A DNA stretch of 63,107 nt, filler included, from Craspedostauros australis (taxonomy: Eukaryota): assembly GCA_030167865.1 (NCBI GenBank). It is 9 parts of 9 records of this genome, joined end to end, with 100 filler letters (N's around TTAATTAATTAA, not from the genome) between each part and the next. Parts side by side here need not be neighbours in the genome. Positions count along the whole stretch, not along the records: positions 56,075 to 61,603 come from JALAGF010002197.1; 8 more parts are not named here. One strand, 5' to 3'. Below are positions 2,707-63,107 of the stretch, in pieces. The translations under genes and the position numbers were made by a program. Within the stretch, counting starts at the first letter, position 1. The number at the start of each line of letters is the position of its first letter. Under the pieces are notes generated by a model. The model was given only the letters and a program-made list of their open reading frames with translations, was not told the origin of the DNA and did not search any database.

Positions 2707-2726
2707 CTCTCTCTCTCTCTCTCTCT
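2707..2726. repeat. (CT)10 microsatellite
   Basis: Directly visible CT dinucleotide run. Confidence 0.9.
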
Positions 2727-3511
2727 GTCTGTCTACAGGTGACTCCAGGTCGCACCACGAGGCCCCCACGTCACCTCTGATTGCGATTTGTTTGGGAAGT
2801 GAGGGGGAATGCAACTCGGAGAAGTGATCATCCCACAGGGGCAGACGCACCATTCCACGCAAACCTTGCAGCGCGCCTCCAGGGTCGCGACTGATCATTG
2901 AACAACTGTCCTGTAGTCGTGCAGAGCAGATCGTTCTTTGCACCACGCCAAGCAAGCTTGAACCTGTCCTGACATCACGATGAACTCGTGCGTCGGCACT
3001 CTTTCTCAGTTCTTTCCATGTCTATCTCCACAGAATAAGTATTCGCAGAACAGAGGAGACAAGAACAGAAACAGAGGAGATAGTGCGTGTCTGTGGAAGT
3101 CCGCGCGTCAGCAGTCTTGGATCAGCATGATCTTGTGCGGCCGATGGCGTGTCGCGTCTCGAATGTGCGATTGACAATGGGAAGCCTCACGAACCTGTCT
3201 CGAGAGTATCCTTTCTTGACAACAACACATGCTTCGATAGGACGGTACAGCAACAGTAGTACCCTCGAAAGCACTCGGCTCTGTTCTGCCATTCACTATG
3301 ACTCCACTCTCCAGTTTCAAAAGTATACATTGTTATTGTGCATGTAATTGTGTGTAGAATAGGCAGGCCATGCCATTGTCTAGTATGCTCTCCGCGTGTT
3401 CAATGTGTGAATGGACGATTCAACTCACTGCAGGGCTCACTGTTGACCGTTGACCAGGTCCCGCCACTCCTCCCTGTTCAGTCGATCCAGCTTGTTAATC
3501 TCATGCTTCAG

Positions 3512-3611
3512 NNNNNNNNNNNNNNNNNNNNNNNNNNNNNNNNNNNNNNNNNNNNTTAATTAATTAANNNNNNNNNNNNNNNNNNNNNNNNNNNNNNNNN
3601 NNNNNNNNNNN
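3512..3611. other. Assembly gap with artificial TTAATTAATTAA linker (also at 4867-4966, 6088-6187, 12894-12993, 17234-17333, 48637-48736, 55975-56074, 61604-61703; plain N gap 17538-17667)
   Basis: About 100-nt N blocks with a central six-frame-stop linker repeated at each gap. Confidence 0.95.
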
Positions 3612-4866
3612 GCAGAATGGTCGCGTGGAACGGAAGTTCGCTGTGCTATACGGAAAGGTCAGGGCGATGCTCAATCAGACCCACCTACCAAAGCACCTAC
3701 AAGGAAAGCTATGGGCTGAAGCAGTAAGAACAGCAACGCAACTTGAGAACATTATTGGAACGAAGTCGAGAGAACCGGCTTGCGTACTATTCAATGGGCA
3801 GACACCCACATACGTGGACGGACTGCGTTTGTTTGACGAGATTGGCATGGTGTTCATTGGAGGCCGAGTGATCAAGACGAAGCTGGACGATCGGTCCAAA
3901 CCTGCTATGTTCGTCGGATACGGACAGTCACATGCGAGAGGTGTATACCGAATGATGAACCTCGCAACGGCAAGGATCCTAATCACGCGAGATGTGACAT
4001 GGATGAACCAGTCGTATGGGCAATTCAAGGGTGTTGAGAATGCCAACAGGTCGGTGATATATGATCTGGATGACGACGACTCTGAGACTGGAGATGCAAT
4101 CCAGAGAAAGAGAGTGACTTGGGGGCGAAGCTCGAATATCGCGAGGAACGCGAAGATCGGCGTAGCAGAGAGGAGCGGAAGAGCCGGACACACAAAAGAA
4201 AACACAGATGACACCGCTCACGAGCAAGATGATTTGCTACCTGCCCAAGGGGAAGAACCATCGGACAATGATGAAGACGATGAATCCAGAAGGGACAACG
4301 ACCGTGCGGGGCGGATCGATTCGGCTATTGAGCAATCGACTGCACGTATTCCCGTGAGACCATTGGCGCGCGTACCGAGGATGGTGAGTAGCCTGGCCGG
4401 CTACAACAACTCACCGATTCCCCAAGAGGAGAGGGAACGAGAATCAGAATCAGATTCGGAATCGGAGGCAGACGAAGCATCAGCATCAGGAGATGAGGAT
4501 GGCTATGANACTGCNCAGGAGACGATGATAGTCCCCGCGGCTACTGGAGGACCCAACTTCCACACAGATGGGTCGATGTTCAACAGAGACGTCGCCAGCA
4601 TGATGATCGATACTACCCAAGGGAGGATGAGACTTATCGACTTCATCGCTGCGAGTCAAGATGTTGAGAACGAACGGAATGGTGAATGGTCCGAACAAGC
4701 CAACACGGCTGTGATGTTGGATCCAACGACGTTCGAGGAGTGCTGGGATCATGCTGATCCCAAGAAGAGAGAGAAGTGGCGTGGGGCTATCAACAAGGAG
4801 TTTACCGACATGGCCAGAAGAGGAGTATGGCAGAAGATCAAAAAGAGCGAGATGCCAGACGACCGA
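3612..4866 (+). mobile_element. Ty1/copia pol fragment (integrase C-terminus, linker, start of RT), bounded by gaps
   Basis: QNGRVERKF...KLWAEAVRTA...KLDDRSKPAMFVGYG...ITRDVTW (copia integrase core end and GKGY-type region), then PTTFEECW...KWRGAINKEF...RRGVW (pre-RT). The integrase-before-RT order is that of copia. Confidence 0.9.
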
Positions 4867-5120
4867 NNNNNNNNNNNNNNNNNNNNNNNNNNNNNNNNNN
4901 NNNNNNNNNNTTAATTAATTAANNNNNNNNNNNNNNNNNNNNNNNNNNNNNNNNNNNNNNNNNNNNCCAGAAATCTTGCCCCTTTTCGTGTGTTCCATTT
5001 CCCCTGTAATTCTGACGAATCACAGTATACTATCGACACGAGTATAGTTACACCGTCCAAGTGTGTATGAGAGAATAGCGGGTGAACGATGCACATATAC
5101 ACGTACATCTTGACATATAC

Positions 5121-6087: not shown

Positions 6088-6413
6088 NNNNNNNNNNNNN
6101 NNNNNNNNNNNNNNNNNNNNNNNNNNNNNNNTTAATTAATTAANNNNNNNNNNNNNNNNNNNNNNNNNNNNNNNNNNNNNNNNNNNNTGTGGATTCGACA
6201 GTCGAGTTGGTGAGAGTGGATATGAATTCGACAGTCCAGTTGGTGTGGCTGGGTGCGACTGGGTGTGGATTTATTAGCGCACGCTAAATCTCTAACAATA
6301 GCGACACCCGTCGACCAATCAGAAATCTCCACTTTTCTTACCTTTTCCGTTCCGAACGGAAATTTTGGTCGAAAATCCGTTGTGTCAGATTTGTGTCGCA
6401 TTTCGCGTCGCAA

Positions 6414-6588
6414 CAAACCAGGATATGTATGAAACCGTTGAAACGGCGTTACACGATAGCCGCCACTACCAATCATGGACGACACAGCAATGAGACAACA
6501 ACATGGACGCATACGACATCGATGAGACTCATAATCTGCATCTTTACTCTTTTTCACTCTAAATCAGTTTCACGTGTGTCGTAACTTG
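6414..6588 (+). repeat. 5' LTR
   Basis: CAAACCAGGATATG...GTGTCGTAACTTG, identical by eye to 12635-12809. Confidence 0.95.
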
Positions 6589-7066
6589 GTTTATCATTCT
6601 CATCCGCTCATGCGGGCATGTGCGAGCGTGTAGGGACCGCCTGAAGAGGCGACGATAATACTGGGACCCCGCTCCGAGGGTGGACCGTCACCAAGCCGGC
6701 ACTGCTTGTGCTGTGCTGCATCCTCTTTGACCATGGTGTGCTGATGCAGAGTGACCGGCATCAGCGGGATGCAATCTCACCGTTCGCGTTGCGAGGTGTT
6801 GATGACACTGGTGGACGCACCGACCGTGGGTCACACGGAAATCCCTACTGAGACACACGCTGTCATCAGCGTAAAGATCGTGTGCCTTATTGCCCGGTCT
6901 GTGCTTCTCATCGCGGATCCACACCACGAAAACACACGTTGAAACGCTTTTTCACGTCGAAAACACACCATGTCCCAGTGTGATTTTCTTGACAACACAA
7001 TCTCCCTCTCCCTTCACTACTTCTCTCTCATCCTCATCAACCACATCATACACGAACATCAACAAC

Positions 7067-8560
7067 ATGGCAGCCGCTGCAAACCCCAACGTCAACGAGA
7101 TACGTGACTATTGCAAGAACATACTCAGCTTCCCCGATGATGACATCGTCGATGCTTTGGAGGATCAAGGTTTGACCAAATTCGACGATTTTCTCTCCAT
7201 CACCGACGAAGGCGTTACTGCCCTGTGCAAGCGCATCTGTGACGGTAGCGGATTTATCGAAAATCCTGCATACAAGGCGGGAGCCAAGGGCAACACACCA
7301 CCGCAAATCAAGGATCCAGGCATCAGCGTTGGTTGGGTTCATGAAACGAAACTGCGCCAACTTCGCTATGCACGATTCCACTTTCAACGCATTCAACGTC
7401 CTTTCACGGCGGCAGAGGCACCCATGGATCGCCTCGTTGCGCTATGGGAACTCTTCCTTGAGGAACAACGCATCAAGAAGGAAACCGAGATGGACATGCC
7501 AGAACGGCTGGTCAAAGTGGACCGTGTCCGTGACAGCCTCGAAGACATTCAGAACTACTTGGAGAACACACATGGTGCACTCGACACTCCACTTTCCTAT
7601 GTGATCCGTGAGGATGCACGTAAACCCGAAGACCGCACACCGGCCATCAACGACGGATTTGGTGTACCCACCATGAAGGAGGAGCTCATTGACCGAGCCA
7701 TTCATGAAGGCATCCGCTACGACGCTGACAATGCCAAAGTGTGGCAGGTGGTTCGTCATGTCACTCACGGCGGACCTGCATGGGCTTGGGTCCAAGGCTT
7801 CGAGCGCGCACGCAATGGTCGTGCCGCATTCATTGCTCTCAAGGAACACTATCACGGCGACTCCTTTCAGGCGCGCACCAAGGCAGCAGCATCCAAGACG
7901 ATTGCAACCAGCTTCTATGACGGCAAGTCACGTCAGTTTTCATTCGAACGATACGCACAGATCATGAAAGGCGCGTTCGAGGACATGGCACGATGCGGTG
8001 AACCGTTGGTGAACGCGGCGAAAGTGCGCCACTTCCTCGATGGTATCCATGATTCTCGTCTCGACAGCGCATGCGTTGCTATCAAGATCAATGAAGCTCT
8101 TCGTGAAGACTTGCCCGGGGCCATCAATGTCCTGAGCGAAGTCATTGATCACAAACAAATCGCATCACCCAGACGCTCCATTGGCTCGATGGACCGCAGT
8201 AAAGGTGGTCGTGGCAACCGGAATGGAACACCAAGCAAGGGTGGTCGCGGAGGTCAAGGCAAACCCAAGAAGTATGATCCAAACATGGTCATCACTGATC
8301 GCCACTACTCACCCGACGAGTGGTCGGTCATGTCATCCGCACAGAAGACCAAGGCACTTGAGATGCGTGCTGAACGAGACAAGCGCCGTGGGGTCATGTC
8401 GGTGGGCAGGAGCACGCCATCCAAACGTCCTCATGAAGAGACCGATGGGCACTATGGGCCACGCGATGCGGCTAATCAAGGCGGTAATCCATCTGGCACC
8501 AACAATCAGGCTGGAATCGGCAGTATGGCCACCCGCCGCAACCAGCAAGGACGTTCCTGA
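7067..8560 (+). CDS. gag: Gag (497 aa)
   Basis: MAAAANPN...GALDTPLSYVIRE...YDADNAKVWQ...RNGRAAFIALKEHYHG...YDGKSRQFSFERY...KVRHFLDGI; basic Gly/Arg-rich tail; no CCHC knuckle. Confidence 0.9.
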   Translation: MAAAANPNVNEIRDYCKNILSFPDDDIVDALEDQGLTKFDDFLSITDEGVTALCKRICDGSGFIENPAYKAGAKGNTPPQIKDPGISVGWVHETKLRQLRYARFHFQRIQRPFTAAEAPMDRLVALWELFLEEQRIKKETEMDMPERLVKVDRVRDSLEDIQNYLENTHGALDTPLSYVIREDARKPEDRTPAINDGFGVPTMKEELIDRAIHEGIRYDADNAKVWQVVRHVTHGGPAWAWVQGFERARNGRAAFIALKEHYHGDSFQARTKAAASKTIATSFYDGKSRQFSFERYAQIMKGAFEDMARCGEPLVNAAKVRHFLDGIHDSRLDSACVAIKINEALREDLPGAINVLSEVIDHKQIASPRRSIGSMDRSKGGRGNRNGTPSKGGRGGQGKPKKYDPNMVITDRHYSPDEWSVMSSAQKTKALEMRAERDKRRGVMSVGRSTPSKRPHEETDGHYGPRDAANQGGNPSGTNNQAGIGSMATRRNQQGRS

Positions 8561-11500
8561 CCACAAAGTCGCATTCGACGGCTCACATCCGTCGGCGTGT
8601 CTATGTCAACTGATACCCCACGGGCAGAGCTGGACTCACATGCGGATACATGCTGTTTTGGTGACACTGCGTACATTGTGCATCAGACCGACCAAACCGT
8701 CACTGCAACTCCCTTTATTGACTCACTTGGGTCCATCGATAATGCACCAATCGTCACAGCTGCGATAGCATACGATGATCCAATTACATATCAAACATTC
8801 ATTCTTTTCTTTCCACAATCGATCTACTTTCCTCGTCTTGAACATCCTTTATTGTGCCCAAACCAAATGAGGGCTGCGGGTATAGTCGTGAATGATGTTC
8901 CTCTGCTCATGATCAAGGAGCACGAACGGAAGCCGGAAGACCACTCTGTGGTCTCATCCGACGACGACCTACACATCCCTCTACGATTGCAAGGCACTGT
9001 ATCCTACTTCCACATGAGAAAGCCAACACAACAAGAAGTCCAGTCCGATCGTGACTGTATACACATCATGATGACGCAAGAGGCCACATGGGACCCCTCC
9101 CAGTGGTCGTCAGGGGACGACGAAGACGCCATCCGTGCGTCTCTCTCATCACAACGAACCATATCGTCCATCAACATCCGTGGCACACACACGTCCAATC
9201 GAAAGGGGACTATCACGCCTGACGTCCTCGCACAACGCTGGCGCATTGGAACGGAAGCCGCATCACGTACCCTTGACGCAACAACACAGTTGGCCATTCG
9301 CGACTTTCGTCACTCATCAGGAACACGTCGCCTCAATCCATACGCCATGCAACTACGATACCGTCGACTCAACACCCAACTCTATGCCGACACCATGCAC
9401 GCAAAGACCAAGTCGATTCGTGGCAACAAATGCGCCATGATCTATTGCACACCGTTTCACTGGGTCCGGGTGTACCCAATGGCGGAACGCAAGGAAGCAC
9501 ATCGCACACTCGACGAACTGTTCCGTGACCACGGCATCCCACATACCATCATCCCAGACAACGCCAAAGAGCTCGTAGCCGGCGAATTCCGTCGCAAGCT
9601 ACACAAAGCACAAGTATCCATCCGACCAATCGAAGCATATATCCACAATCAGAACAAAGCAGAAGCAACCATCCGTGAGCTTCGACGCCATTATCGACGG
9701 CTGATGACCTCGACCGATACACCAGAATACTTGTGGGACTACTGCTTCGAGTACTGTGCCGAGATTCGCAGTCACACTGCACTCGCCATCCATGATCTTC
9801 ACGGCGAGACACCGGCCACCATCTTGTCCGGTGACACTGCTGACATCTCTCACATTGCTGAATTTGGTTGGTTTGACTTTGTGTGGTATATCAACATCCA
9901 GGATGCATCCATGAATGTCAAGCAACTTGGTCGATACCTTGGGCCAAGTCGCTCTGTTGGTGATGCAATGTGCTCGTACATCCTCACTGCCAACGGCATT
10001 GTTGTCTCCAAATCATCTGTTTTGCCTCTTTCTCACGACGATACACACAGCGACGTCATCACACATAAATGCAATGAATTCATGGACACACTTCGATCCA
10101 AATGGAAGCAACGAATGGAAGGCATCACAATCGACGACGACGGCGACGACGTTGACGATACTGCAGCAGACATCGCCATCCTGCAGAATACTGAACCACT
10201 GGAACCAATCGTGGAGCCAGACGATGTCGACAGTGCAACCTTCGACAAATACATCGCAACCAAAGTCATTCTACCGACAGGGGACGAAATGCAACATGGA
10301 ACAGTCAAACAACGCAAACGAGACACAGAAGGCAACCTCATCGGCCGCTCTCATCCGAATCCTATGCTTGACACCGCCCAATACGAAGTCGAATTCCTTG
10401 ACGGACATCACGAGGTGTTCAGCGCCAACCAAATTGCGGAGAACATCTACGCGCGCATCGATGACGACGTATACACGACTGTGCTGATGGACGAAATCAT
10501 CGATCACAAACGCTTGCCCTCTGTTTCTTCTCCTTCTCCTCATTCTAAATCCACAAAAGGCTGGAAGCTCTGCATCCGATGGAAGGATGGGTCCACATCA
10601 TGGATTCACCTACGCGACGCAAAAGAAGCCGACCCAGTACGCGTTGCCGAATACGCTGCAGACAATAAACTCATCAACGAACCTGCATTCAAGTGGTGGG
10701 TACCACACACCCTACGCAAACGACAACGCATCATCATGGCAACGAAGCGGCGACACGTCCGAAAGAACGAGATGTTTGGTGTGGAGCTCCCTACATCAGT
10801 GCGCCACGCACTCGCAATCGACGCGGCTACAGGCACGGATCTATGGCGACAGGCCATCGCGAAAGAAATGAAGGCCGTGCGACCAGCATTCGACATCAAG
10901 GAACTGGATACTCCCGATCCTGTGGGCTACCAATACATGGAATGCCACATGATATTCGCCGTCAAGGTGGACCTCACAAGAAAAGCGCGACTTGTCGCTG
11001 GGGGACACATGACGGAGACACCTGCAACGATCACATACGCGAGTGTGGTGTCACGCGAAAGCGTACGCATTGCGTTCTTAATCGCCGCACTCAACGATCT
11101 GGATATCCTCGCCGCGGATGTTCAGAACGCATACCTTAATGCACCATGTCGAGAACGCATTTACACACGATGTGGTCCGGAGTTCGGATCCGATCAGGGG
11201 AAGATTGCAATCATTTGTCGGGCCCTATACGGATTGAAGTCGAGTGGAGCAGCATGGAGAGCACACTTGGCAGAGACACTGCGCGATTCGTTGGGATTCA
11301 CATCCTGCCGTGCCGACAGCGATGTCTGGATGAAGCCTGCAGTTGCGAGCGATGGGTCAGAATATTACGAATACGTGCTCGTGTACACCGACGATATCCT
11401 TGCTGTATCCAAACAACCGCGACGCATCCTTGATGCGATTGACTCACACTTTTTCCTCAAACCGAGTTCCATTGGCCCTCCAACAACATATCTTGGATCC

Positions 11501-12463
11501 ACCATCTCACAATTCCACCTCACTGCCGATCCATCACGTCCCAAATGGAGCATGGGCTCACAAGAGTACATCAAGTCTGCTCTCAAGATCGTCATCAAAT
11601 ACCTCAACGACCACAATTTGCGACTCAAAACGAAAGCACCCAGCGTCCTACCGAACAAGTACCGACCAGAATTGGACGGGTCACAACTGTGTGATGCTGA
11701 ACAAACGACATTCTATCAGCAACTGATCGGCATCCTGCGATGGACGGTTGAGCTCGGGCGCATTGACATTTGCTGCGAGACCTCGATGATGGCATCGTAC
11801 TGTGTCGCGCCACGAATTGGTCACTTGCATGCTCTCTTTCATATGTTCGCATACCTCAAATCTCACGATCGTTCTCGCCTTGTTTTTGACGATGCATACA
11901 TTGACAAACCGCCTGTGATGCAACCTAACTGGAACGATTTCTACCCTGACGCTCATGAGCAACTGCCTGCTGACATGCCACCGCCGCGCGGAAGGGAGGT
12001 TCAAATGACGTGCTTTGTTGATGCTGATCATGCAGGTGACCGCGTCACGCGACGTTCACGCACTGGTGTGCTTTTATTCATGAATACGTCACCGATACTG
12101 TGGTACAGCAAGAAACAGAACAGCATTGAGACATCCACATTCGGCAGCGAATTCACGGCGCTCAAGGTCGCAACCGAGATCATCATCGGCATAAGATACA
12201 AGCTCCGCATGATGGGCATTCCGTTGGATGGCCCGGCGGATGTACGGGTCGACAATCAGAGTGTGGTGTACAACTCCTCACTACCAGAATCACAATTGCG
12301 GAAGAAAGCCAATGCCATCGCATATCACTTCGTTCGAGAAAGCATCGCCGCGGGCATCCTGGTGGTCCAACATGAACCATCGGAAACCAATCTATCCGAT
12401 ATGCTCACGAAACAACAACAAGGACCGAGACGAAAAGAACAAGCACAACGGGTCCTCTTCTGA
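8561..12463 (+). CDS. pol: Pol polyprotein (PR-IN-chromo-like-RT-RNaseH), in frame with gag
   Basis: PR ELDSHADT; IN LYADT...PDNAKE...AEATIRE (DDE); RT RKARLVAGGH, ADVQNAYL, ALYGLKSSG, VYTDD; RH VDADHAG, TFGSEF, DNQSV, SDMLTK. First ATG at 8603. Confidence 0.97.
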   Translation, partial: PQSRIRRLTSVGVSMSTDTPRAELDSHADTCCFGDTAYIVHQTDQTVTATPFIDSLGSIDNAPIVTAAIAYDDPITYQTFILFFPQSIYFPRLEHPLLCPNQMRAAGIVVNDVPLLMIKEHERKPEDHSVVSSDDDLHIPLRLQGTVSYFHMRKPTQQEVQSDRDCIHIMMTQEATWDPSQWSSGDDEDAIRASLSSQRTISSINIRGTHTSNRKGTITPDVLAQRWRIGTEAASRTLDATTQLAIRDFRHSSGTRRLNPYAMQLRYRRLNTQLYADTMHAKTKSIRGNKCAMIYCTPFHWVRVYPMAERKEAHRTLDELFRDHGIPHTIIPDNAKELVAGEFRRKLHKAQVSIRPIEAYIHNQNKAEATIRELRRHYRRLMTSTDTPEYLWDYCFEYCAEIRSHTALAIHDLHGETPATILSGDTADISHIAEFGWFDFVWYINIQDASMNVKQLGRYLGPSRSVGDAMCSYILTANGIVVSKSSVLPLSHDDTHSDVITHKCNEFMDTLRSKWKQRMEGITIDDDGDDVDDTAADIAILQNTEPLEPIVEPDDVDSATFDKYIATKVILPTGDEMQHGTVKQRKRDTEGNLIGRSHPNPMLDTAQYEVEFLDGHHEVFSANQIAENIYARIDDDVYTTVLMDEIIDHKRLPSVSSPSPHSKSTKGWKLCIRWKDGSTSWIHLRDAKEADPVRVAEYAADNKLINEPAFKWWVPHTLRKRQRIIMATKRRHVRKNEMFGVELPTSVRHALAIDAATGTDLWRQAIAKEMKAVRPAFDIKELDTPDPVGYQYMECHMIFAVKVDLTRKARLVAGGHMTETPATITYASVVSRESVRIAFLIAALNDLDILAADVQNAYLNAPCRERIYTRCGPEFGSDQGKIAIICRALYGLKSSGAAWRAHLAETLRDSLGFTSCRADSDVWMKPAVASDGSEYYEYVLVYTDDILAVSKQPRRILDAIDSHFFLKPSSIGPPTTYLGSTISQFHLTADPSRPKWSMGSQEYIKSALKIVIKYLNDHNLRLKTKAPSVLPNKYRPELDGSQLCDAEQTTFYQQLIGILRWTVELGRIDICCETSMMASYCVAPRIGHLHALFHMFAYLKSHDRSRLVFDDAYIDKPPVMQPNWNDFYPDAHEQLPADMPPPRGREVQMTCFVDADHAGDRVTRRSRTGVLLFMNTSPILWYSKKQNSIETSTFGSEFTALKVATEIIIGIRYKLRMMGIPLDGPADVRVDNQSVVYNSSLPESQLRKKANAIAYHFVRESIAAGILVVQHEPSETNLSDMLTKQQQGPRRKEQAQRVLF

Positions 12464-12626
12464 CCTCGGCGCTGCGCAATAGTACCCATGGATGGTCAGT
12501 CATGGGCTCTGCTCATGACTGGTGGGGTGAGCGCCCTGTGGTGTCCACATGTGGGGCATGCAGCAGGTACATCCCGAATGCAACCAAAATGTGACAATAC
12601 GACGGCTAGCACAGCCACCGCGCATC

Positions 12627-12633
12627 GAGGGGA
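12627..12633 (+). promoter_or_regulatory. Polypurine tract
   Basis: GAGGGGA ends 1 nt before the 3' LTR. Confidence 0.8.
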
Positions 12634-12634
12634 C

Positions 12635-12809
12635 CAAACCAGGATATGTATGAAACCGTTGAAACGGCGTTACACGATAGCCGCCACTACCAATCATGGA
12701 CGACACAGCAATGAGACAACAACATGGACGCATACGACATCGATGAGACTCATAATCTGCATCTTTACTCTTTTTCACTCTAAATCAGTTTCACGTGTGT
12801 CGTAACTTG
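12635..12809 (+). repeat. 3' LTR
   Basis: Identical copy of 6414-6588. Confidence 0.95.
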
Positions 12810-14047
12810 GCAAGAATCGTTTTCCCTCAATCACAGATCCAAAAATGTCGCGGAAATTGATTTCTTGCCAAGATGAGCCAATCTGCCCAATCANNNNNNN
12901 NNNNNNNNNNNNNNNNNNNNNNNNNNNNNNNNNNNNNTTAATTAATTAANNNNNNNNNNNNNNNNNNNNNNNNNNNNNNNNNNNNNNNNNNNNCATTGTG
13001 TGGGTAGTGGGAGAGTAGAAGGAAGCACAAGTTGGCCATGACAATGAGGAATGTCCGGACAACACACACGATCAGGCGACAGGGTGTAAAAGTCAAAAAT
13101 GGAGCCACGAATCTGGGTTTTGCATAAATCAGGATGATTGTGCAAACAACTGACAGGAAGAAGGCTGAAAGATGGCAAATTTTCAGTTTGGTTTTTGACT
13201 TTTGGACTGTAGATTATGGAAGAAACTGTTGTTGCCTTATCATGGGAAATGCAAAATTACCGTCTTTCCCCCCCCCCCCCTAGGTGGACTATACCATAAA
13301 TGTCGGTTTCGGTTCGCTGTTCTTAATCTCCACCGCGGAGCAGAAGTATCTTGTCCCCAAAATTTATGCCATCGACGTTCGCCCAACAACACCCTTCCCT
13401 GTATCTTCCCGTGCTATTCATGCCTCGTGTATTCGTGAAACAGAGTCATGACATTGGGCACATCCAACGAAGCCCACGACAAGACACAAACAAAAGCGCG
13501 CCACAAGAGACAACCACACAACGAAGTAAACAAAGCAAACAAACACAAAACCACCAACAACAAGCGGGAGAGGCAGAGATGGGGACGAGACAACAGCAGC
13601 AAACACAACCAACGCAATGCGAACTCGCTGTCAAACTCCTGTGCGCTGACTAGCTGATGCCGAGTCGCAAAGTCCAGAATCATCACTCAGCGCCTCTCTC
13701 CAGAACGACAACCAACCCGCTACGAGAGCTGCAAGGGAGGAAGACACCAACACCCACGCACACGAACACAAGAGAGAGGGAGAGGTGAGGGTCAACAATC
13801 CACGAACAACAAACGCGATACAAGAAAAGAAGGAAGTTGACCAGAGACATCTCCCTTCGGTGAATTTCAGTTGCAGTTCGGTCCGGTTCCTCTTACTCCA
13901 CGGCCCAACCCCCATTCGGCACATCAGGAATCACCACCAAGGACCTCCACAAAGCCTCATTTCTTCCTCTGGGACCACAATCATCCCAATTGGCAAGCCT
14001 CGCGCTCCACTTATTCTCGTGCCACATTATTTGCAACACAATAGTTG

Positions 14048-14085
14048 CAACACACTACTTTCAACACACTACTTTCAACACACTA
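14048..14085. repeat. 14-bp tandem repeat (CAACACACTACTTT, about 2.7 copies)
   Basis: Directly visible. Confidence 0.85.
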
Positions 14086-14410
14086 TCCCCTCGTATCCCA
14101 TCTCATTGCCAATACTCATCGTACGACTCGTCTACAGACATCCTCTGCGATACTCTGTCAGTGCTCTGTCGGTGCTCTGGAGCAGTACCACAACGCACTC
14201 TGCCGTCCTCGAACTCCATACGAGTACTTGCACCAGACAGAAAGGTTGCAGACGCCGCAACTGCCAATTGCACACCAAAGCAAGCTGCCGGATAGGCAGC
14301 ACCGGTCTCCATCCCCCTGAATGCAGCGGTTTCGCTCATCCCAAGCACTTTCGTTGCCACAAACCTTCTTGGACGGAAAGGATAGAAAGCCTGCAACGTT
14401 TGATACCGAC

Positions 14411-16127
14411 ATGACGAACGTTCAGCCAGTATCGACGCTCCTCAACAGCTCCATCCAGTGCGGAGACGGCCCAAGAGCACCAGGCGGCTTCTTGCAGGAA
14501 GATAAAACGGCTGGCTGTCATCCATGCCTGTTCTGTTCAGCGAAGCAACACAGCGCTGGGGGAGGCGCCGCTCTTATTGGCAACAGCGACCCACAAGACG
14601 ACTTGCGGCAGCGCCGCGAGTTGCTGAAGACCACCGATGGGGACCTGCTGCAGGCAAAGGATTTGGAAAGTCTGACGGCCGAAGAACGGGCCAAGGTGTA
14701 CGATGATGTTCACGGCGTGGCGGATGCGGTGCCCGTGCCGACCGATCCCGACATCCTCCAATCCTACCTGGATGCCATGGAGGAGAAGCTGCGCAACACC
14801 CGCATGAAGAAACCGTACGATCTGGCCATGTTCCTCTTCCCCCGTTACTCCAAGTCCGGCAACTTGCGTCTCGTATTTCTGCGCGCGGTCGACTTCGATC
14901 CTGCCCGGGCGGCCAAGCGGCTCATCCTCTTCTTCACCATCAAGTTGAAACTGTTCGGCGCGTCGATGCTGGGGAGGGAGATCATGCTCACTGATCTGTC
15001 CGAGCCTTGCCAGCAGGTGGTCCGGTCCGGATGCTTCCAGCTGTTTCCGCATGCCCTCAGGGATAGATCGGGGCGACCGATATTCGTTCAGATGTCGCAT
15101 CTCTTTGGACAGCACAAGCCCGATCACATTGTAAGTTGGGTATCAGATGCTGCTGTCGTTGCTGTTCATGCCATGGGGGTTGCTGATTGATGAAAGTGGC
15201 GCAAATCCCTTTGGTGACACTCTTGTTGACGTCAGCATCGTTGTTGTCGTCGCCAACTGGTTGCAACCTTCTTGGGAACTGTTGTGCAGATCTATCGTTG
15301 CTCGTGTACTGCCATTCTCAAACTTCACGCAAACAACGCACTCTTCAATACAAGACTATACTCACGAACATACCGTCTCCATCTTTACTCCTGCAAACTC
15401 TCATGACGTACTTCAGGTCCGGACATTTTTCTATTCCATCATGGCCGGCCTTCGTGAGATGAGCGACGCGGACCAGTGCAAGGGCGTGGTTGGGATCCTG
15501 CATTCGATCGGGATCAAGGAGACCTCGCCAATGTTCTGGGAGCTTCTGAGCAAGGGCATCGAAACAGCGAAGGCCTTGCCGATCAAGCAATCGGCGTGTC
15601 ACCTGTGCTACGACTCGCTGATGCTCAAACCTGCCGTCTCCTTGGTTCAAGTCTCGGTCAGTAAGTACGCCCGCATGCGCATCCGATCATTTGCGGGGTC
15701 TTTCCTCGAGTCCATGTATCATCTGAACACATTCGGGATCCCCACCGACTCCTTGTCGCTGCATCACGACGGCACGTTAGATCGGACCAGGTACGATCTG
15801 CTGATCCAATCGCGTCTCCACAATGAGAGCAATTACAATCACATCCTGATGGAGGTCCCCACAAGCAACGACGTGCTGCTGGGGCGCGGAAAGTCTTACC
15901 AGACTCATCCCGGCAACGTCAAATTTTTGAAGATAGTGGAACACCATGGCTCCCAGTACATGAACGCAGACAAGGCAACCAAGAAACGCATCGTGGAGGA
16001 GATCCGCAACGCGATCGACCATCAAGGCGGGCGCTTCATGCGGCTGTCGAATGATGCTCTGGATTGGGAGCTCATGAACAGGTCGGAATCAGGCCGCAAG
16101 ATCCGCAATGCTTTCCGATTCAAGTGA
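14411..16127 (+). CDS. CRAL-TRIO/Sec14-like + DUF6824 protein; exons 14411-15130, 15417-16127 (alternative ATG 14321)
   Basis: A GTAAGT..CAG phase-0 intron joins two ORFs. FLRAVDFDPARAAKRL, RDRSGRPI, QCKGVVGI, LPIKQSACHLC are CRAL-TRIO-like. PTSNDVLLGRGKSYQTHPGN...GGRFMRL...W...KIRNAFR matches DUF6824. Confidence 0.85.
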
Positions 16128-16798
16128 AAGCAGAACGGGTGCATGGTGCTCGCAGATGGGAGAACACATGTATGGGTCCTGTTTCTTTGGTGGAGTGCTC
16201 TGGTGGGCCCTTCTCGTATTCAGATTATCTGCTGGGATAATGGTCGTGTTGACGACCAGCGCGCACGAGTAAGGCATCAATTTTCCGCCAACACATCCTC
16301 TCGGCTCCGCTCACCTTGTTGGCTGGCATACGAATACGAGCTACTGTGCCATACCATGCGCCATCGCGAGTTTCGCAGCACGAACTATGTACTCGTACTC
16401 GCGGGGCAATTTTGCTTTGATGCTCTTTCATGGTACACGTATTGGTATGGGAGTACTGCAGCCGATGGGAACTCTCTCTTGACCAAGTGATCACCTCCTT
16501 GGGTCGATTGCATACACCCAACGAGAGATAGAGAGTGCGCGAAGAGTAGAGTACTCTTTTGCTTTCGCCACAGTGTTCTTTGGCGGAGTACGTACACCAG
16601 AGTGGCATGGAGTGGAGTATTCCGCTGAACCATTGCTGGCTACTATAGACAGAAATTCAAAAAGAATGAAGACAACTTACGGATATCTGTGATGAGCATG
16701 TATACATAATAGTGGAGATGGAGTGCATACTCCCAAGTCCGCACATGAGTAGGTACTTCAATACTGGGACCGCGTATCTCTGGACATGGACTGGTGTG

Positions 16799-17233
16799 TA
16801 ATAATAATAACTCAATGATTACATTAGAAATGTGCCCTGTAAGCTTTACCCTCGCCTCCGCCGGCCCCGTAGGACCGGGTTTCGAGCGAGCCGTCGAACA
16901 CACGAATCATGCGAGGCCCAGCCAATTACTCATCAGCCGCCGTTCATTCTGCATGGTGCGCGCCCGTCGCCGGGCGGCCACCTTGGAATGCACCTCCTGC
17001 ATGTCCTGTATCCACTGCCGCATCTGCGACTCCGTTCCGTATTCCATCTGGTAGCCCTCCCGCAGGAGAACCAACTCTGACTCGTTCATGTCCTGGCTGG
17101 CGCTGACCGCGATCCGTCGCACTTGCCGCCGCAGCTCCGCCAGTGACGGGTGCTGCTCGCCGTCGTGCACCTTCTCGTTGCGCGCGACCCATACACTCCA
17201 GGGAACTTTCCAGACCCACCGTATCACTTCCTT
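16799..17233 (-). mobile_element. 3' end of a non-LTR retrotransposon (Ambal/L1-like ORF2 C-terminus, stop at 16907, plus 3' UTR)
   Basis: VIRWVWKVPWSVWVARNEKVH carries the W..W..RN..H motif of LINE ORF2 C-termini. It is cut by a gap upstream, with a (TTA)4 run at 16799-16810. The true 3' end is uncertain. Confidence 0.65.
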
Positions 17234-17388
17234 NNNNNNNNNNNNNNNNNNNNNNNNNNNNNNNNNNNNNNNNNNNNTTAATTAATTAANNNNNNNNNNN
17301 NNNNNNNNNNNNNNNNNNNNNNNNNNNNNNNNNCATAGCCGCCGTTTTTGCCGTATCGTTGGTGCATAAGGGCAGAACTGCACCTATT

Positions 17389-48636: not shown

Positions 48637-48736
48637 NNNNNNNNNNNNNNNNNNNNNNNNNNNNNNNNNNNNNNNNNNNNTTAATTAATTAANNNNNNNN
48701 NNNNNNNNNNNNNNNNNNNNNNNNNNNNNNNNNNNN

Positions 48737-55974: not shown

Positions 55975-56202
55975 NNNNNNNNNNNNNNNNNNNNNNNNNN
56001 NNNNNNNNNNNNNNNNNNTTAATTAATTAANNNNNNNNNNNNNNNNNNNNNNNNNNNNNNNNNNNNNNNNNNNNGTAGTCCTCCACACTCAACCCAGACA
56101 CTCGCAATGTTGCTCCCATTTGATCCATCGCACGTCGCCGTGCCGACCTTCAGTGCTGTTTTGGGTACACTGTCCGTTAACAGTGTCCGCTAAGTTCGTT
56201 AA

Positions 56203-56421
56203 TTTTGTCCGGTCTGTACATTCTGTTCGGTAGTTTTTGTCCGGTCTGTCCGGTCATTTTGTCCGGTTTGTCCGGTCGTTTTGTCCGGCCTGTCCGGTTT
56301 GTCCGGTCGTTTTGTCCGGTCTGTCCGGTCTGTCCGGTCGTTTTGTCCGGTCTGTCCGTTTTGTCCGGTCATTTTGTCCGGTCTGTCCGGTCTGACCTAG
56401 TTTCTCCGGTTTTGTCCGGTC
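56203..56421. repeat. Tandem array of TGTCCGGTY-based units (about 17 TGTCCG copies)
   Basis: Directly visible 9- and 13-bp units arranged in higher-order blocks. Confidence 0.92.
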
Positions 56422-57153
56422 TCTCTTGATGGGCGTGAACGAACCACAATTGAAGTAAAATAGCGTAACCCTAAGTATGCTGTTTGGGATTTCGGCTGAT
56501 TCGCTTTTCTGTCTCAACGCCGTGTATTAAGTCCCGTTAAAGTAAGTCACGAGCTAGAAAAGTGAAAATCGGACAAAATGTTGGGTGTTCCTGGCGCGAA
56601 AGCAAGACAGCCATCGCCGGTGGCTTATACAAAAACGCATTTTTTAATCTTCTCGCCACTTCAAGCGCTCTATACTTAAATAATCTCCTGAAATTGGCTT
56701 CCACCGCCTTGGAGGCGAATGTGCTTTTCGTTTTGGTCGTGTTCGTTGTGTTCGCATGTGTTCTGGGAGTGTTTGTCATTGTTCCCAAGTTACTTTTCCA
56801 ATACTCTACTCGCGAACGGCTGACCGCGACCAGAGATACAAGCCCGATCTGTGCACTGTGCGGATAGGCAGAACAGCTGCTGCGGAACAACCCAACCACG
56901 CTTCCGTGGACGACACCAGCAGCAACGAAGACAACCAGAACGACAACAACGGCGAGGATAGCGGGCCAAATAAGAACACCACCATACTCCCAACACCGAA
57001 CCACGGAAACCTCACCAGGCACTCTGAGTTCTCTCATCTTGCTGTCATTCAGGACTATCATCCCGATCAGCAAATCACCACACATCACTGTGCACTACCA
57101 CGTATCGCCCACACCCACACCCACTGCAGACTCCCCGCCAATCGAGAGACAGT

Positions 57154-59791
57154 ATGGCGGGCACGGCTGATCCTCAAGCAACAACCCGAACCACGGCAAA
57201 TGAACAAGTCAATGACGCATCTCGCCAAGGCAGCAGCCCACATGCCTCGGCGGCCATCATGAACAACGCCAACATGGCGGCAACGTTCACTGCCGCCAAT
57301 GCTAGCGGCGATGCCAATGCAAGTGCCGACACTGGCATCGGCATCAGCATCAGCACGAATGCCAATGGTCAAAAGGTGATGGTCAATGAGAATTTTCTGT
57401 CGACTGTGCCGCCGGAAGATCTCATGCCAGATTCGATCGATAAGGTGTTGGCGAGCGAGATGAAGGCCCTTTCTCTGCAGCAGCGAGAACAAGTCTACGA
57501 GGACATCCACGGGGTCTCGGTCACAATCGAAGAAACGGAGGAGTTCCTCGACGCCAAGCTGAAAGAGTTCGCTGCGCACATTCGGACCGTGCAACCGAAA
57601 GTTGCGTACGACATGGCATTTCAGCTGGACGATACCTTCGTCACCAACTCCGAATTTTGCATCATGTTCCTGCGCTCCGAGTCCTTCCGCGTCCAGCTGG
57701 CAGCGCAGCGAATGATCCGACACTTCGAGACGAAGCTAGACCTGTGGGGCAAAGACATGCTCGTCAAAGAAATCGATTACGACGATTTGGATCTCCTGAC
57801 CCAGGAGATCGTATACACCGCAAATTGCAACCTTTCTGTACTCGAAAAGCGGGACACGTCAGACCGCGCTGTCATCGTATCCTTGGAGAAGTATCATCGA
57901 GCATTCTTCAGAACGGACAGTCCGAGGATATTCAACGTGAGTTGCTGGTACCATGCTCTGGAAGCATGTTGATGACACCCAGAAACACCCGGGGCAAGAG
58001 CGGAAAATGCACGTCACACTTGCATCTGACTGCCTGCCTGGCTGCCTGTCTGCCTGCATTCAGACAACTGAACTGATTTGCATGTTATCAACACCCTGAA
58101 AAACACACGCATCATCATCGTTATAATCATGAACCGCAGCGGCATTATCACCACTGCTGATCCTGTTGCCTCCGGCTTGTGCCATTCCTCTTGAGTTTCT
58201 CACCTTCAGCTTGTTTGGTTTGGGTCTTTATCTTGCCTTCCTTCCTCCCCTCCTCTCCGTGTTTCCTGCTCTTGCTCTACCAATACCATATCTTCTCCAA
58301 CTCTGTACAACTCACTTCCCAGAATCGCATCCTGTGGTACTTCATTATGGCGGTGATGAGGAATGACGAAACAACACAAAAGAATGGCGTTGTGTACATT
58401 TGTTTCGGCTTGGACTTTGTTCCCAAAATGGATGCAGTGGAAAGAGAGGTTTGGTGGGGCTCTTGCGCTGTACTCAATTCGTTGCCCATGCGTGTTGTCG
58501 GCTTTCACTACTGCTACAATTCGCCCAAGTTGCAACCATTCATCGCCTTGGTGTCAATGGGATTGGGACATGACACAAGATGTCGCGTGAAGGCGCACTA
58601 CGGTACGTATGTGCAAGGCTTGACATATGAAGACCCTTGGAAATCGTTCGAATCTTCTGCAATATATGCCAAATTGCGAAAGATCTCACCCCGTTCGCTT
58701 GTTGCAATACAATCTCGTTCTTCTGTTCCGCAATATTCCATTCTCCATGCCTGCATACGATATGTGTTATATAATACAACCATGACATCTTCGTGTGAAA
58801 TGATATCTTGGCACATCCATCACGGCTCCATTCATTGATCTATCCATCGGTCTATCGGTGCGTGGTATTATCTGCATTGTCAACAACCTACCCAACGATG
58901 CATCATCTGGTGCGTACATGTATCTTGCACATGCTTCTACAACGCGGGATGCACACATTGCATGCATGAACGTGTGGCCGTGCAAACCTTCGCTGACGTG
59001 ATCGTTTGACATGTCTATTGGTATGGATGACGCGGTGCCATCTCGTCTGACCAAGAGCAGGCACAACCCAGGAATGCCTCTACGCACTCATGTCGTTCGG
59101 TATTCCTGTGCAAGAGATCCCAATCACGCATAATGGAGATCGGAAACTAGGTGGGTACGCCTCCAAGTGGCTAGGACGCCGTCAGTTGATCGAGAGGCGA
59201 CCCAATATGTTCAGAGGCGCGATCGAACTGCCAGCTAGAAATGACGTGCTTCTCGGCAAAGGCAAGCCAATCCAGGAACACTGCGGCAATAAGAGACTGC
59301 ACGACATCGTCGCGTTATATTACGACGATTACAACGAGGCTCCGACTCGACTGATGAAGCGTGCAACGTGCGAGAAAGTCCTGCAGGTCATCCACACCAC
59401 CCCGGCAAAGTTCTTGAAACGCGCCAACACAGGATATTGGGCAGAGGTGCCCAACAACGCTGCCTTGGAGAAGATCGGGCATTGCTTCCGTCGCAAACGA
59501 GAAGTCATCAACGCCCAAAGGCGAAACAGAGAGCAATCAGATACGCAGCAGGGAGAACGAGAGGACGGTCAGGCATTGATTTTGCGCGCATTTGGCAGTC
59601 GCAAGGGTACCAACAGTAGCAACAACAACGATGGCGGCGCTTCTGTCGCCGGTTTGGGGAGCAACAAGAGAGGCCGGATGTCACGGCCATCGCCAGGCAT
59701 GCAGAATGCCCATGGCAGCGAGGCCAGTGCTCCAGAGGGGTCCTGCTGCGACGTGTTCTGTTTGCCCAACTTGCCCAAAGAGCCATTTTAA
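57154..59791 (+). CDS. CRAL-TRIO/Sec14-like + DUF6824 protein, paralog 2; exons 57154-57936, 58323-58602, 59061-59791
   Basis: LSLQQREQVYEDIHGV, MFLRSESF..QLAAQRM, RDTSDRAV, TQKNGVV, LPMRVVGFHYC, HYG|TTQECLYALMSFGIP, NDVLLGKGKPIQEHCGN...KFLKR...W...EKIGHCFR; both GT-AG introns are phase-consistent. Confidence 0.88.
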
Positions 59792-61703
59792 GTGTGAGGC
59801 ATCTGGTGCGGACTACAGTACGGCTCGCGTACGAGCTCCACATCGAAGCGATCGAGCCCGTGGACAGGATATCGGCACCCGAATCGGAGTGGAGTTGCGA
59901 AGCCCTTTCCGAGACGCGCTGCTCGCAAACCAGCCCAGCCAACAACAAAGAGTGTGGCAGAATTACATTTTATGCAGCTGTTCTCACTGTGCTCACATGG
60001 TAGAGGACCACTCAGCAGACGAAGTCGGAGCACAGAGCAGAGCGCCGTCCATGTGTGTGCGCAATGTGTGTTACTACTCGGATGTAACGCACAACGAGCA
60101 GAGCGCCATACTTACTCTAGAATACACGCATAATAGAATAGTTTGTAAGAGTTACATTTACAGCGATGGCTCCCCTCGGTACCTCGCGTCTTCCTAGAAA
60201 CGCTGCGTGAGACACGAACGAAGATACTCTTGGCACATCGTGAACAGGTCGTGTAACCTCGCAGAGTTCTCCATAGTATGTATGTATTGTATTACTGTGC
60301 AACAAAAACAAGACTTTGATGCGCACATGGCGAACACGCACTGGAGCGACAGACTGGCCCAGCCACGAGTGGAGCAGGCGGCAACGGAGAGAGTCACTGT
60401 GACTGGCACGATGATGGCGACGATCACGATCACGATCGCAGGAATGACTGGCCAAGTGGTGGGCTTTGCGAGATGGTGCAGCGGCCACGCGAAAAAGAAA
60501 TGAGGAGAAGTTCGTCCTTTTGGAAGAGTTCTTCCGCGGCGGGAGCGATGAGTGCTTGTTCTGTACCCAAGGTCGGATCCAAACGCGCGGCGAGCAGAAA
60601 TGCAAATAGCACTCATGTCCATTCTGGCTCTTCATGTTTGGCCTCAGAGAGGTTGGCAAGGGAAAGAGCGTATCCACATAGTGTCACATGAAGGTATGCT
60701 CGCAAAGACAAGGCAAAGACTCACGGATACAAGTACGAGGACAACGGCGAGAGCACACTTTGCGGAGATTCGTGTTTGGATTGGATTGGTGCCCATTGGT
60801 GGCCAGGGAGTGTCATGCTTCAGCAGATCCATCACACTCGAACCAACTTTGAGATTAGATTAGTTCTTTTACACGTGATGCAAAATGAGCGAGCTGCGTT
60901 CAGACATGATTCGTCCCGACTGCTCTACCATGTGATGGTAAAGCTCAAGAGGGACGCATAGCTATCATACCTATGTGCATCTGGTGGAAGCGCATCGATC
61001 CTATATAAGGCTCTATTGTGATAGCAGTAATATTCATTCTCTCTGTTCATAGATTGAAAGCGGGAGCGACTACTCCGTTCATGTCCATATCATCCGTACC
61101 ATACATATGTAACTCGTACGAACACAACTCCTACTCCTGCTCTTGTCCCCATCGAGCGCAGAAAACCGGGCCGTCTCTGTCCACAAGGATCTCTTTGTGG
61201 GTATGTTGCCACACCATGCTCTGCTTCGTTCTCTCTGGGTACGGAGAGTGTCAATGCTGAACGCTGGGCTCACGAGGTAACCATCAGCACGTATCACTGA
61301 TGGCAACGCATTCTGAACACAGCCGAATCATCCACGAGACCATGACAGACAAACTGAACTCCGTCCCTCCAGCACAGTCATGGGCAGTGTTGGGCGTTCC
61401 AGGAACACCCAACAATTTGTCCAGAATAAAGTGAAAAAAGCCAGTTTGAGTCTTACAGGACACGAATTAGAGATAAGTATTTTTTGCCACAGAAAGTTAC
61501 AGATTCTGTAGGACGTGAACATTGAAGTAAGAACTTGCATCTAACGGACTATGTAGGACATATACGGACAGACTCGACCCATTCGGACACGTACGGACAA
61601 ATCNNNNNNNNNNNNNNNNNNNNNNNNNNNNNNNNNNNNNNNNNNNNTTAATTAATTAANNNNNNNNNNNNNNNNNNNNNNNNNNNNNNNNNNNNNNNNN
61701 NNN

Positions 61704-62365
61704 ACGTCCTCGTTTAGGTCTACACCTATCACAATCGAATCCCCGTCTCCTTTCCACCTTCGCACTAGTTCTTGTAGGTCATGAATCCATGCCTCGTGGG
61801 GATCGACTTGTCGCCCCTGCGTACTCAGCACTCGCACCTGCTGGCTCCACACGGTGGTGTCACCTGCGGTGGATTTGCACGGTCTATATGCTGCCACCAC
61901 TCTCACAGTCTTGTGCCTTTTTCCTTCGATCTTGCACCAGGACCATCTCCCCATGCCACTCTCATCAACTCCGTACTGAAAGGTTCTTGCCGCCATCTGC
62001 TCTGTGAGAACAACGCCTGTCCCTCCGTACAGCCTTGGTTCGCGCCCTTGCTCGTGGATGTTGTACGAGAATATATGCTTGGATCGTTTGACTTTACCGC
62101 GCACTCGTTCTTCCCATTGATCATGGGGACGCACGTGGTTCCATCTCAAGTTTGTCTCCGCCATCGCTAGCACATCGAGTTTCGACCGTCGGATGAAGTC
62201 TATGATTTCCTCATTCTTCTGTTGATATGCATATAGAGGGATCTGTGCCACGTTCTGAAATACGACTCTGACTTCATTATCCGTCTTCGAGTCCATCACA
62301 TCGCCGCAAGCATCGTTTAGTCTACTTGCCTCCTCCTCTGCCGGGTTCCCGGCTTGGTTACTCAT
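61704..62365 (-). CDS. AP-endonuclease domain of LINE ORF2 (truncated by gap)
   Basis: VRVVFQNV, DVLAMAETN, GGTG, DESGMGRWSW, VVAAYRPC, VWSQQ, IVIGVDLNE. Confidence 0.88.
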
Positions 62366-62485
62366 GTTATCGGTGTCTCAGCTCCTTCCGTTGCTGGCGT
62401 GTCGATGAGTTCTGCCTTTTGGCTCGCTGCACGGGTTACGTATCGGTGACGTTATCCCTCTTGCTGCTATTATTGCCTCTGGCTT

Positions 62486-62493
62486 TTGTTGTT

Positions 62494-62561
<68 letters not shown>

Positions 62562-62708
62562 GATTATTATTGTTGTAATTCTTGTTGTTGTTGTGATTAT
62601 TATTGTTGTAATTCTTGTTGTTGTTGTGATTATTATTGTTGTAATTCTTGTTGTTGTAGTTCTTGTTGCTGTTGTAATTCTTGTTGTTGTAGTTCTTGTT
62701 GCTGTTGT
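62486..62708. repeat. Compound (GTT/AAC)n microsatellite with 33-bp higher-order repeats
   Basis: About 20 pure GTT units, then about 3x GTAATTCTTGTTGTTGTTGTGATTATTATTGTT and 2x GTAATTCTTGTTGTTGTAGTTCTTGTTGCTGTT. Confidence 0.92.
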
Positions 62709-63107
62709 CCTTTTTGTAGTCTCCTGTTATTGTTACCGTCTCCGTTCTCTGTTCTCTTGGGCCCTTTCTCCCGCTTTTTTTTTGTTGCTCGCCGGTATTG
62801 TTGATTTGGCTTTGGCACTCGCCGCCCCTTACGGCTGGACTTGGTGAGATGTCTCTCTCTCCCGTCTCGTCTCTATCCACCTTTCGTCCGGATTCCTGTT
62901 CGCTTGCCCGAATCCCTTTGGATCGACACCTGTTGCGCGTACCTGATCCACTGGCGTCGCTGGCAATTACGCCTGCACTGTGGCACCATCGCCACTGTCG
63001 GATTTCTCGGAACTGGTGTCCATATTGTCGATCGATTCGTCGACGGGTGGATCTTTTGTGTCCATCCCTTTGCTGCTTGAGCTATCCTCGTCCTCCTCGT
63101 CTTCCTC

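Follow-up and report, generated by a model that had tools for sequence, protein, structure and literature searches.

A complete CRAL-TRIO/DUF6824 gene between opposed repeat-array ends in Craspedostauros australis: a candidate gene-carrying transposon

Background

The subterminal repeats of En/Spm transposons are the binding sites of TnpA. Members of the CACTA, or En-Spm, group (CMC superfamily) are characterized in one account by CACTA-type terminal inverted repeats (TIRs), by subterminal regions (subTIRs) of several hundred nucleotides that consist of direct and inverted units of 10-20 bp, by target-site duplications (TSDs) of 3 bp, and by a DDE transposase (PMC8978399). Pack-TYPE elements, such as Pack-CACTA in Arabidopsis and Pack-MULE in rice, share their TIRs with an autonomous family, have TSDs, occur in multiple copies, and have a cargo that usually consists of pieces of genes whose parent can be identified. 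In this report we analyse a stretch of 63,107 bases from Craspedostauros australis (GenBank assembly GCA_030167865.1), which we call the window. In one of its contigs (positions 56075-61603; JALAGF010002197.1), a complete gene for a protein with CRAL-TRIO and DUF6824 domains lies between two opposed arrays of a short repeat. An earlier inspection of the window had proposed that this arrangement is a Pack-type element in which CACTA-like ends captured a host gene; we refer to it as the original prediction.

For Pack-CACTA elements, Catoni et al. describe a route in which neighbouring insertions lose complementary ends and thereby enclose chromosomal DNA (PMC6379663). One source describes Pack-TYPE elements as found in plants (PMC8903248). 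As for diatoms, a source that reports automated annotation puts CACTA-type TIR elements at 2.3% in T. rotula (PMC11842555). An active autonomous MULE of Phaeodactylum, with TIRs of roughly 200 bp and 9-bp TSDs, is presented in a report whose relevant passages mention Pack-MULEs only to rule them out (10.1101/2023.01.02.522487). Among the literature matches listed, none describes a gene-carrying non-autonomous DNA transposon in diatoms. A further group, the foldback elements, is described as having inverted ends of tandem repeats that hold extra transposase-binding sites, a non-coding or variable middle, TSDs of 8-10 bp and, mostly, Mutator affinity (PMC4079207).

Results and discussion

The contig and its limits

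The window consists of nine contigs or scaffolds, unsorted by size, that are chained by eight identical 100-nt artificial linkers, each composed of 44 N, TTAATTAATTAA and another 44 N. The linkers are located at 3512-3611, 4867-4966, 6088-6187, 12894-12993, 17234-17333, 48637-48736, 55975-56074 and 61604-61703. Because they are artificial, the DNA left of 56075 and right of 61704 cannot be taken as neighbouring sequence; the window is a chain of unrelated contigs, and arguments from neighbourhood across its linkers are invalid. The gene and both end modules lie on one contig of 5,529 bp, which is small and unplaced. This contig terminates at 61603, within the right array, so that the right terminus and any TSD fall beyond its end. 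The gap that the original prediction saw at 61604 is in fact a linker, and the DNA from 61704 on is unrelated.

The features of the contig are as follows.

56075..56167, no strand assigned: left flank, 93 bp between contig start and array, free of repeat motifs
56168..56193, plus strand: candidate left terminus CACTGTCCGTTAA, preceded by TA and followed by a 13-nt tandem near-copy, CAGTGTCCGCTAA (period 13, 2.1 copies)
56171..56418, plus strand: left subterminal array of 19 TGTCCG(G) copies, with 9- or 13-bp spacing and super-periods of 22 and 31 bp
56431..56458, plus strand: left box, GGGCGTGAAC...ATTGAAGTAA, 13 nt inward of the left array
56571..56594, plus strand: left arm of a 24-nt inverted repeat, GGACAAAATGTTGGGTGTTCCTGG, which begins with the inverted array motif (CGGACA at 56570)
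57154..57936, plus strand: exon 1, 261 codons, with an N-terminal low-complexity region and the first CRAL-TRIO-like part
58323..58602, plus strand: exon 2, the second CRAL-TRIO-like part
59061..59791, plus strand: exon 3, with the DUF6824 domain and the stop codon TAA at 59789-59791
59792..61398, no strand assigned: downstream region, 1.6 kb without recognisable coding capacity, in which no Pfam family, Rfam family or tRNA was found
61399..61422, minus strand: right arm of the 24-nt inverted repeat, complementary to the left arm at 23 of 24 positions
61511..61530, plus strand: right box, GGACGTGAAC-ATTGAAGTAA, which ends 14 nt before the right array
61545..61603, minus strand: inner stretch of the right array, with three CGGACA besides one CGGAC and one GGACA, cut by the contig end

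Scans of the whole contig likewise found no Rfam families and no tRNAs.

Two opposed end modules

The left array starts abruptly, with TA followed by CACTG, after the repeat-free flank, and from CACTG onward it spans 56168-56418, or about 250 bp. The start at 56168 agrees with the original prediction, which had counted about 17 repeat copies in place of the 19 found here. These copies of TGTCCG, whose starts run from 56171 to 56413, are all on the plus strand, with a spacing of 9 or 13 bp in most cases; across the window as a whole, TGTCCG occurs 36 times. Tandem Repeats Finder (TRF) reports periods of 13, 22 and 31 bp for the array, the 31-bp period being present in 4.4 copies with 93% matches. 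A 16-nt double unit has nine matches in the window, every one of them in this array, where 0.06 would be expected. Tandem arrays with a TRF score of at least 80 occur at four loci in the window, and the other three lack an inverted partner. Only one copy of the motif on the left is inverted, namely the CGGACA at 56570 that starts the 24-mer.

The right side carries the inverse motif, as CGGAC at 61545, GGACA at 61557, and CGGACA at 61565, 61584 and 61594. At least 60 bp and at least five motif copies are therefore visible before the contig ends. The cluster of three CGGACA is unique in the window, and none of 2,000 shuffles of the contig produced one, which bears out the earlier observation that three copies plus variants run into what was taken for a gap.

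We also considered whether the right terminus might be located at 61541-61553 with a TA duplication. This segment is an inverted near-match to the left 13-mer with three mismatches. The candidate was rejected: such matches are at chance level (11 found, 14.3 expected), and motif copies continue past 61553. Separately, the end of exon 1 (57909-57924) holds ACGGACAGTCCG, a 14/16 inverted match to the array units. Given 19 array copies to match against, this is most likely a chance resemblance.

An inverted 24-mer and a direct box inside the arrays

Interior to both arrays lies a 24-nt sequence whose two copies, at 56571-56594 and 61399-61422, are reverse complements at 23 of 24 positions, as the original prediction had stated; 0.00 such pairs are expected by chance. 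The inverted alignment scores 43, far above the maximum of 26 among 100 shuffles. In a strict gapped alignment of the two ends, the 24-mer region alone stands out, with 7 of 1,000 shuffles reaching its score, and outside it no similarity of the ends rises above shuffles, even when scoring is lenient. The layout of the two ends is a mirror image. Going inward, each consists of the array, a spacer of 152 bp (left) or 122 bp (right) and the 24-mer, and at the start of both 24-mers stands a single array motif turned the opposite way. Taken together, the arrays and the 24-mer pair are far beyond chance.

The two ends thus share motifs but cannot be aligned, which is the pattern of conserved binding sites within differing 5' and 3' subterminal regions and not that of a recent segmental duplication. 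The 5' and 3' subterminal sequences of CACTA elements are described as differing from each other (PMC6379663).

A box is also present beside both arrays. It consists of GGRCGTGAAC followed by ATTGAAGTAA; its 10-mers start at 56431 and 56449 on the left and at 61511 and 61521 on the right, and each is found at those two sites alone in the window. The alignment of the boxes is not significant (160 of 1,000 shuffles reach its score), and their occurrence beside both arrays is suggestive only.

A complete three-exon gene without a transposase

The DNA between the ends encodes a protein of 597 amino acids in a three-exon gene model with canonical GT..AG introns and a single stop codon. Exon 3 matches DUF6824 (PF20710) with 69 bits, where the cut-off is 27 (E = 4.8e-19; profile positions 1-83 of 84). 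We also used a family profile built from 24 full-length relatives. Exon 1 matches positions 35-201 of this profile (E = 5.7e-64), exon 2 matches positions 204-305 (E = 1.6e-30) and exon 3 matches positions 302-469 (E = 7.7e-49). Because the three exons are colinear with the profile, the gene is complete and its exon borders are right.

The label CRAL-TRIO from the original prediction holds at the level of the family profile and of the fold of a relative; the Pfam model misses it in single exons. Specifically, the Pfam CRAL_TRIO model has no match to the separate exons, and it gave a sub-threshold match in 1 of 11 full-length relatives scanned. When compared with solved structures, the family profile matches retinaldehyde-binding protein (CRALBP; E = 2.4e-17) and alpha-tocopherol transfer protein (alpha-TTP; E = 2.7e-12). 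For an AlphaFold model of the relative P0037, with a predicted local distance difference test score (pLDDT) of 77.9, the best-ranked Foldseek matches are alpha-TTP, CRALBP and Sec14 proteins. The DUF6824 domain of exon 3 was modelled with a pLDDT of 79.6. Its Foldseek search returned no structural relatives above noise (best E = 0.94), and the best VIA-align result, a trihelix DNA-binding domain with Z = 5.9, is below that tool's noise level.

The segment 56075-61603 was found at 100% identity in one small public sequencing run, only at 59060-59246 and 59382-59574, both in exon 3. It was the one run listed, at 0.06 of sampled words, with no RNA data set on record beside it, and its type, RNA or DNA, is only guessed. 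The run shows no loose ends or joints on the contig, and so neither an extension of the right end nor an empty site. One of the run's contigs starts at 59060, immediately ahead of the first base predicted for exon 3, and this hints weakly that the border is used as a splice junction.

Neither a transposase nor a remnant of one was detected between the ends among 7 + 61 open reading frames (ORFs) of the contig. The 61 belong to a set of 68 small ORFs, of which the other seven sit in the simple-repeat array or overlap exon frames. The gene model, the colinearity with the profile and the ORF scans together confirm the earlier statement that a complete, intron-containing gene of three exons is enclosed and that no transposase accompanies it.

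The gene family

Proteins of this kind are numerous. An exhaustive HMMER search with exon 1 yielded at least 2,798 clusters (50% identity) at E <= 0.001, and a C-terminal DUF6824 domain is present in all 11 full-length relatives scanned. The encoded protein therefore shares a widespread architecture of CRAL-TRIO (Sec14-like) and DUF6824 domains, but its nearest public relatives are at most 47% identical. The one relative that bears a name, a DUF6824 protein with 31% identity, comes from the diatom Nitzschia inconspicua and by itself points to a diatom or related stramenopile as the source. Exon 1 had no match among longer proteins in the protein search, which is weak evidence, and the literature searched contains no mention of DUF6824.

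The window itself holds one paralogue, on another contig.

14321..16127, plus strand: paralogue with CRAL-TRIO and DUF6824 domains, 25-29% identical to the gene (DUF6824 E = 5.1e-19; contig 12994-17233)

This paralogue apparently has a single intron, located roughly where intron 1 is, and lacks a counterpart of intron 2. No inverted arrays surround it; the only repeat is a 14-bp unit in 4.5 tandem copies (14023-14085) upstream of its coding region.

Comparison with known systems

By analogy, the layout of the contig as a whole is that of a non-autonomous TIR element with subterminal repeats. Like CACTA elements, the contig has a candidate left terminus that begins with CACTG and a subterminal region packed with short repeats. 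Unlike theirs, its repeat core is 6 bp (with a period of 9 or 13 bp) and not 10-20 bp, and all 19 copies on the left are in one orientation. A second CACTG terminus, a 3-bp TSD and a partner with Transposase_21 are unobserved for this contig. Assignment to hAT, PIF/Harbinger or Tc1/mariner was considered as well, from consensus termini and TSD lengths, which are criteria that depend on the right end.

Pack-TYPE elements resemble the contig in that their ends surround host-derived, intron-bearing genic DNA and that they carry no transposase. Moreover, the hybrid-element route for such elements, in which each of two insertions loses one end, would yield the anatomy of the contig as that route is described (PMC6379663). 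In contrast to typical Pack-TYPE elements, the contig represents one copy with no known partner and no observed TSD, and its cargo is a whole, apparently functional gene that lacks a parent copy.

Foldback elements such as Drosophila FB, Tetris and Galileo-like elements share inverted ends of tandem repeats and a transposase-free middle, and as they are described the architectural resemblance is good. The ends of Drosophila FB contain sub-repeats of 10, 20 and 31 bp, much like the 9- or 13-, 22- and 31-bp periods of the contig. However, foldback TIRs are long and can be aligned arm to arm, whereas the arms of the contig match only in their motifs and the 24-mer, the right arm is cut off, and a TSD of 8-10 bp is unobserved.

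Similar arrays and other features

A 20-mer from the array was found at 28 metagenome loci. Their BLAST similarity is confined to positions 129-348 of the contig, which is the array itself, and one of the loci examined, L149, consists simply of a repeated 9-mer located where its contig ends. A looser pattern of three motifs was also sought in viral contigs and gave at least 121 loci; it was dropped as non-specific.

At locus L141 (positions 1518-3700), an array of TGTCCG/TTTGTCCGG is situated in the 3' region of an RVT_1 retroelement, about 270 nt past its ORFs and on the same strand. The 3' unit of L141 is tandemly amplified to a satellite of about 175-200 bp in L130 (100-700) and L140 (380-1190). 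The repeat in L130 and L140 is a satellite born from the end of a mobile element, in another organism.

Two further features of the window encode retrotransposon-like proteins.

8561..12460, plus strand: Copia-type RVT_2 open frame of 1,300 amino acids (E = 6.4e-17)
61706..62377, minus strand: ORF for a LINE-like endonuclease, left open by the contig edge (Exo_endo_phos at 23.2 bits, short of the cut-off of 24.5; E = 6.6e-5)

The retrotransposon with RVT_2 fills most of contig 6188-12893. Beside the LINE-like ORF, on the small last contig, is a (TTG)n/33-bp minisatellite at 62486-62734. The long ORFs of the window that were scanned also include ordinary cellular genes.

Interpretation of the two ends

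We tentatively read the two modules as the ends of a non-autonomous cut-and-paste (TIR-type) transposon, CACTA- or foldback-like, or as a matched pair of such ends, framing a passenger gene, and we give this reading a little less than an even chance. The modules would then be transposon ends that act together, and the element would be mobile at present or would have been so in the past. A transposase made elsewhere in the genome may bind the phased hexamer arrays and the 24-mers. The bound ends would pair, and the DNA would be cut at termini of which the left CACTG is one. As a passenger, the gene with CRAL-TRIO and DUF6824 domains would be carried along with the upstream and downstream DNA that belongs to it. 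With super-periods of 22 and 31 bp, or about two and three helical turns, the arrays would suit cooperative binding on one face of the DNA. As to origin, two nearby insertions could each have lost one end, leaving a 5' and a 3' end around chromosomal DNA. That the contig is short and stops in the right array is to be expected of an end that is repeated or hard to assemble.

In favour of this reading are the opposed arrays, the inverted 24-mers at matching distances, the likeness of the two ends in motifs only, the abrupt CACTG start after a repeat-free flank, the lack of a transposase or remnant between the ends, and the rarity of comparable arrays in the window. A number of results weigh against such a transposon. 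The scans of the window and of the metagenome collection returned no evidence of mobility. Paired ends elsewhere, which the original prediction suggested seeking, were looked for: neither end has a second copy in the other eight contigs of the window, the exact 24-mer has 0 matches in the metagenome collection, and the 28 metagenome loci with the array 20-mer are similar in simple repeat only. The search for an autonomous partner was equally negative, with no DNA transposase among the 51 of 116 long ORFs of the window that were scanned. The right terminus and its TSD are beyond the contig end. The array core of 6 bp runs in one direction per end, as against the 10-20-bp units of CACTA elements, and the box copies are in direct, not inverted, orientation. 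Another organism has a TGTCCG-type array in the 3' region of a reverse-transcriptase element, and such an array therefore does not by itself identify a DNA transposon. Finally, an entire gene, flanked by 0.56 kb of upstream and 1.6 kb of downstream DNA, makes up the cargo, unlike the gene fragments of Pack-type elements, and no parent copy was found from which it could have been captured: the window paralogue is 25-29% identical and lacks such ends, and public relatives reach at most 47%. Of the earlier claim of a Pack-type element, then, the opposed matching ends, the intactness of the gene and the lack of a transposase stand. Membership in CACTA and capture of the gene are not supported by these results, nor is the suggested part in the expansion of the DUF6824 family.

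Several other explanations account for parts of these data. Two separate insertions, either MITE-like copies or fragments of a short non-autonomous element or solo ends that aberrant excision left behind, might flank a resident gene in opposite orientation, in which case the gene never moved. Each module is indeed self-contained, with an array and one inverted motif copy by its 24-mer; what lies between the modules has the look of a normal, complete gene with long flanks; the window and the metagenome 24-mer scan yielded no further copy of the entire unit; and the nearest inverted match to the left 13-mer, at 61541-61553, is within the contig. But that match, with its three mismatches, occurs at chance frequency, no inner terminus (...CAGTG) is present at the inner edge of either module, and the modules, with nothing but motifs in common, do not align as two copies of an element would. 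We regard two insertions as unlikely, with perhaps one chance in a handful. We assign about the same low likelihood to the view that nothing here was ever mobile, and that the modules are host cis-elements (arrays of binding sites, boundary elements or promoter modules) or a minisatellite combined with an old short inverted duplication. The left module is upstream of the gene, the window paralogue too has a small upstream tandem array (14 bp x 4.5), no copies were found in the other eight contigs or by the 24-mer scan of the metagenome collection, and the direct GGRCGTGAAC/ATTGAAGTAA box fits regulatory sites that work independently of orientation better than it fits terminal symmetry. However, the right module is 1.6 kb downstream of the stop codon, in a region that shows no sign of a second gene, the break of the contig falls within the right array, and neither the mirrored order of array, spacer and 24-mer nor the abrupt CACTG start is expected of promoters.

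It is less probable still that the arrays are the 3' tandem-repeat regions of two different retroelements, each lying outside and directed toward the gene. The precedent is L141, where the array follows the RVT_1 ORFs on the same strand at about 270 nt and where the unit recurs as the L130/L140 satellite. A unique island between repeated retroelements would also account for the shortness of the contig, and the contig placed next in the window has a minus-strand LINE-like endonuclease ORF in the orientation needed. Yet the adjacency of these contigs is artificial, the LINE-like ORF has no relation to the element of L141 (E = 5.6 by BLASTP; nothing significant by tblastn or tblastx), and the likeness of L141 to the contig is in simple repeat only. 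The 24-mers, which would be outside both retroelements at matching distances, would be left unexplained. A chimeric or fold-back contig with wrongly joined ends is something we consider very improbable. The contig is small and unplaced and ends in a repeat, as such an artefact might, but its ends share motifs only and are not copies of each other, the enclosed gene is intact and colinear with the family profile, and an independent run has exon 3 at 100% identity.

Conclusions

The contig is a well-formed candidate for a gene-carrying element. We consider it a long shot that an undescribed family of diatom DNA transposons with hexamer-array ends moves whole, functional, intron-containing genes and could in this way have swelled the DUF6824 family. 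In a bolder variant of that idea, the DUF6824 protein might be the element's own repeat-binding accessory protein and not cargo, and the weak, noise-level fold likeness to small helical DNA-binding domains neither supports nor excludes this. If the element is mobile, a diatom-like genome would hold a gene-carrying DNA transposon of the Pack type, outside plants and with a complete gene in place of fragments. Its mobility would provide a concrete route of gene duplication at the DNA level for a lineage in which families of unknown function have expanded hugely.

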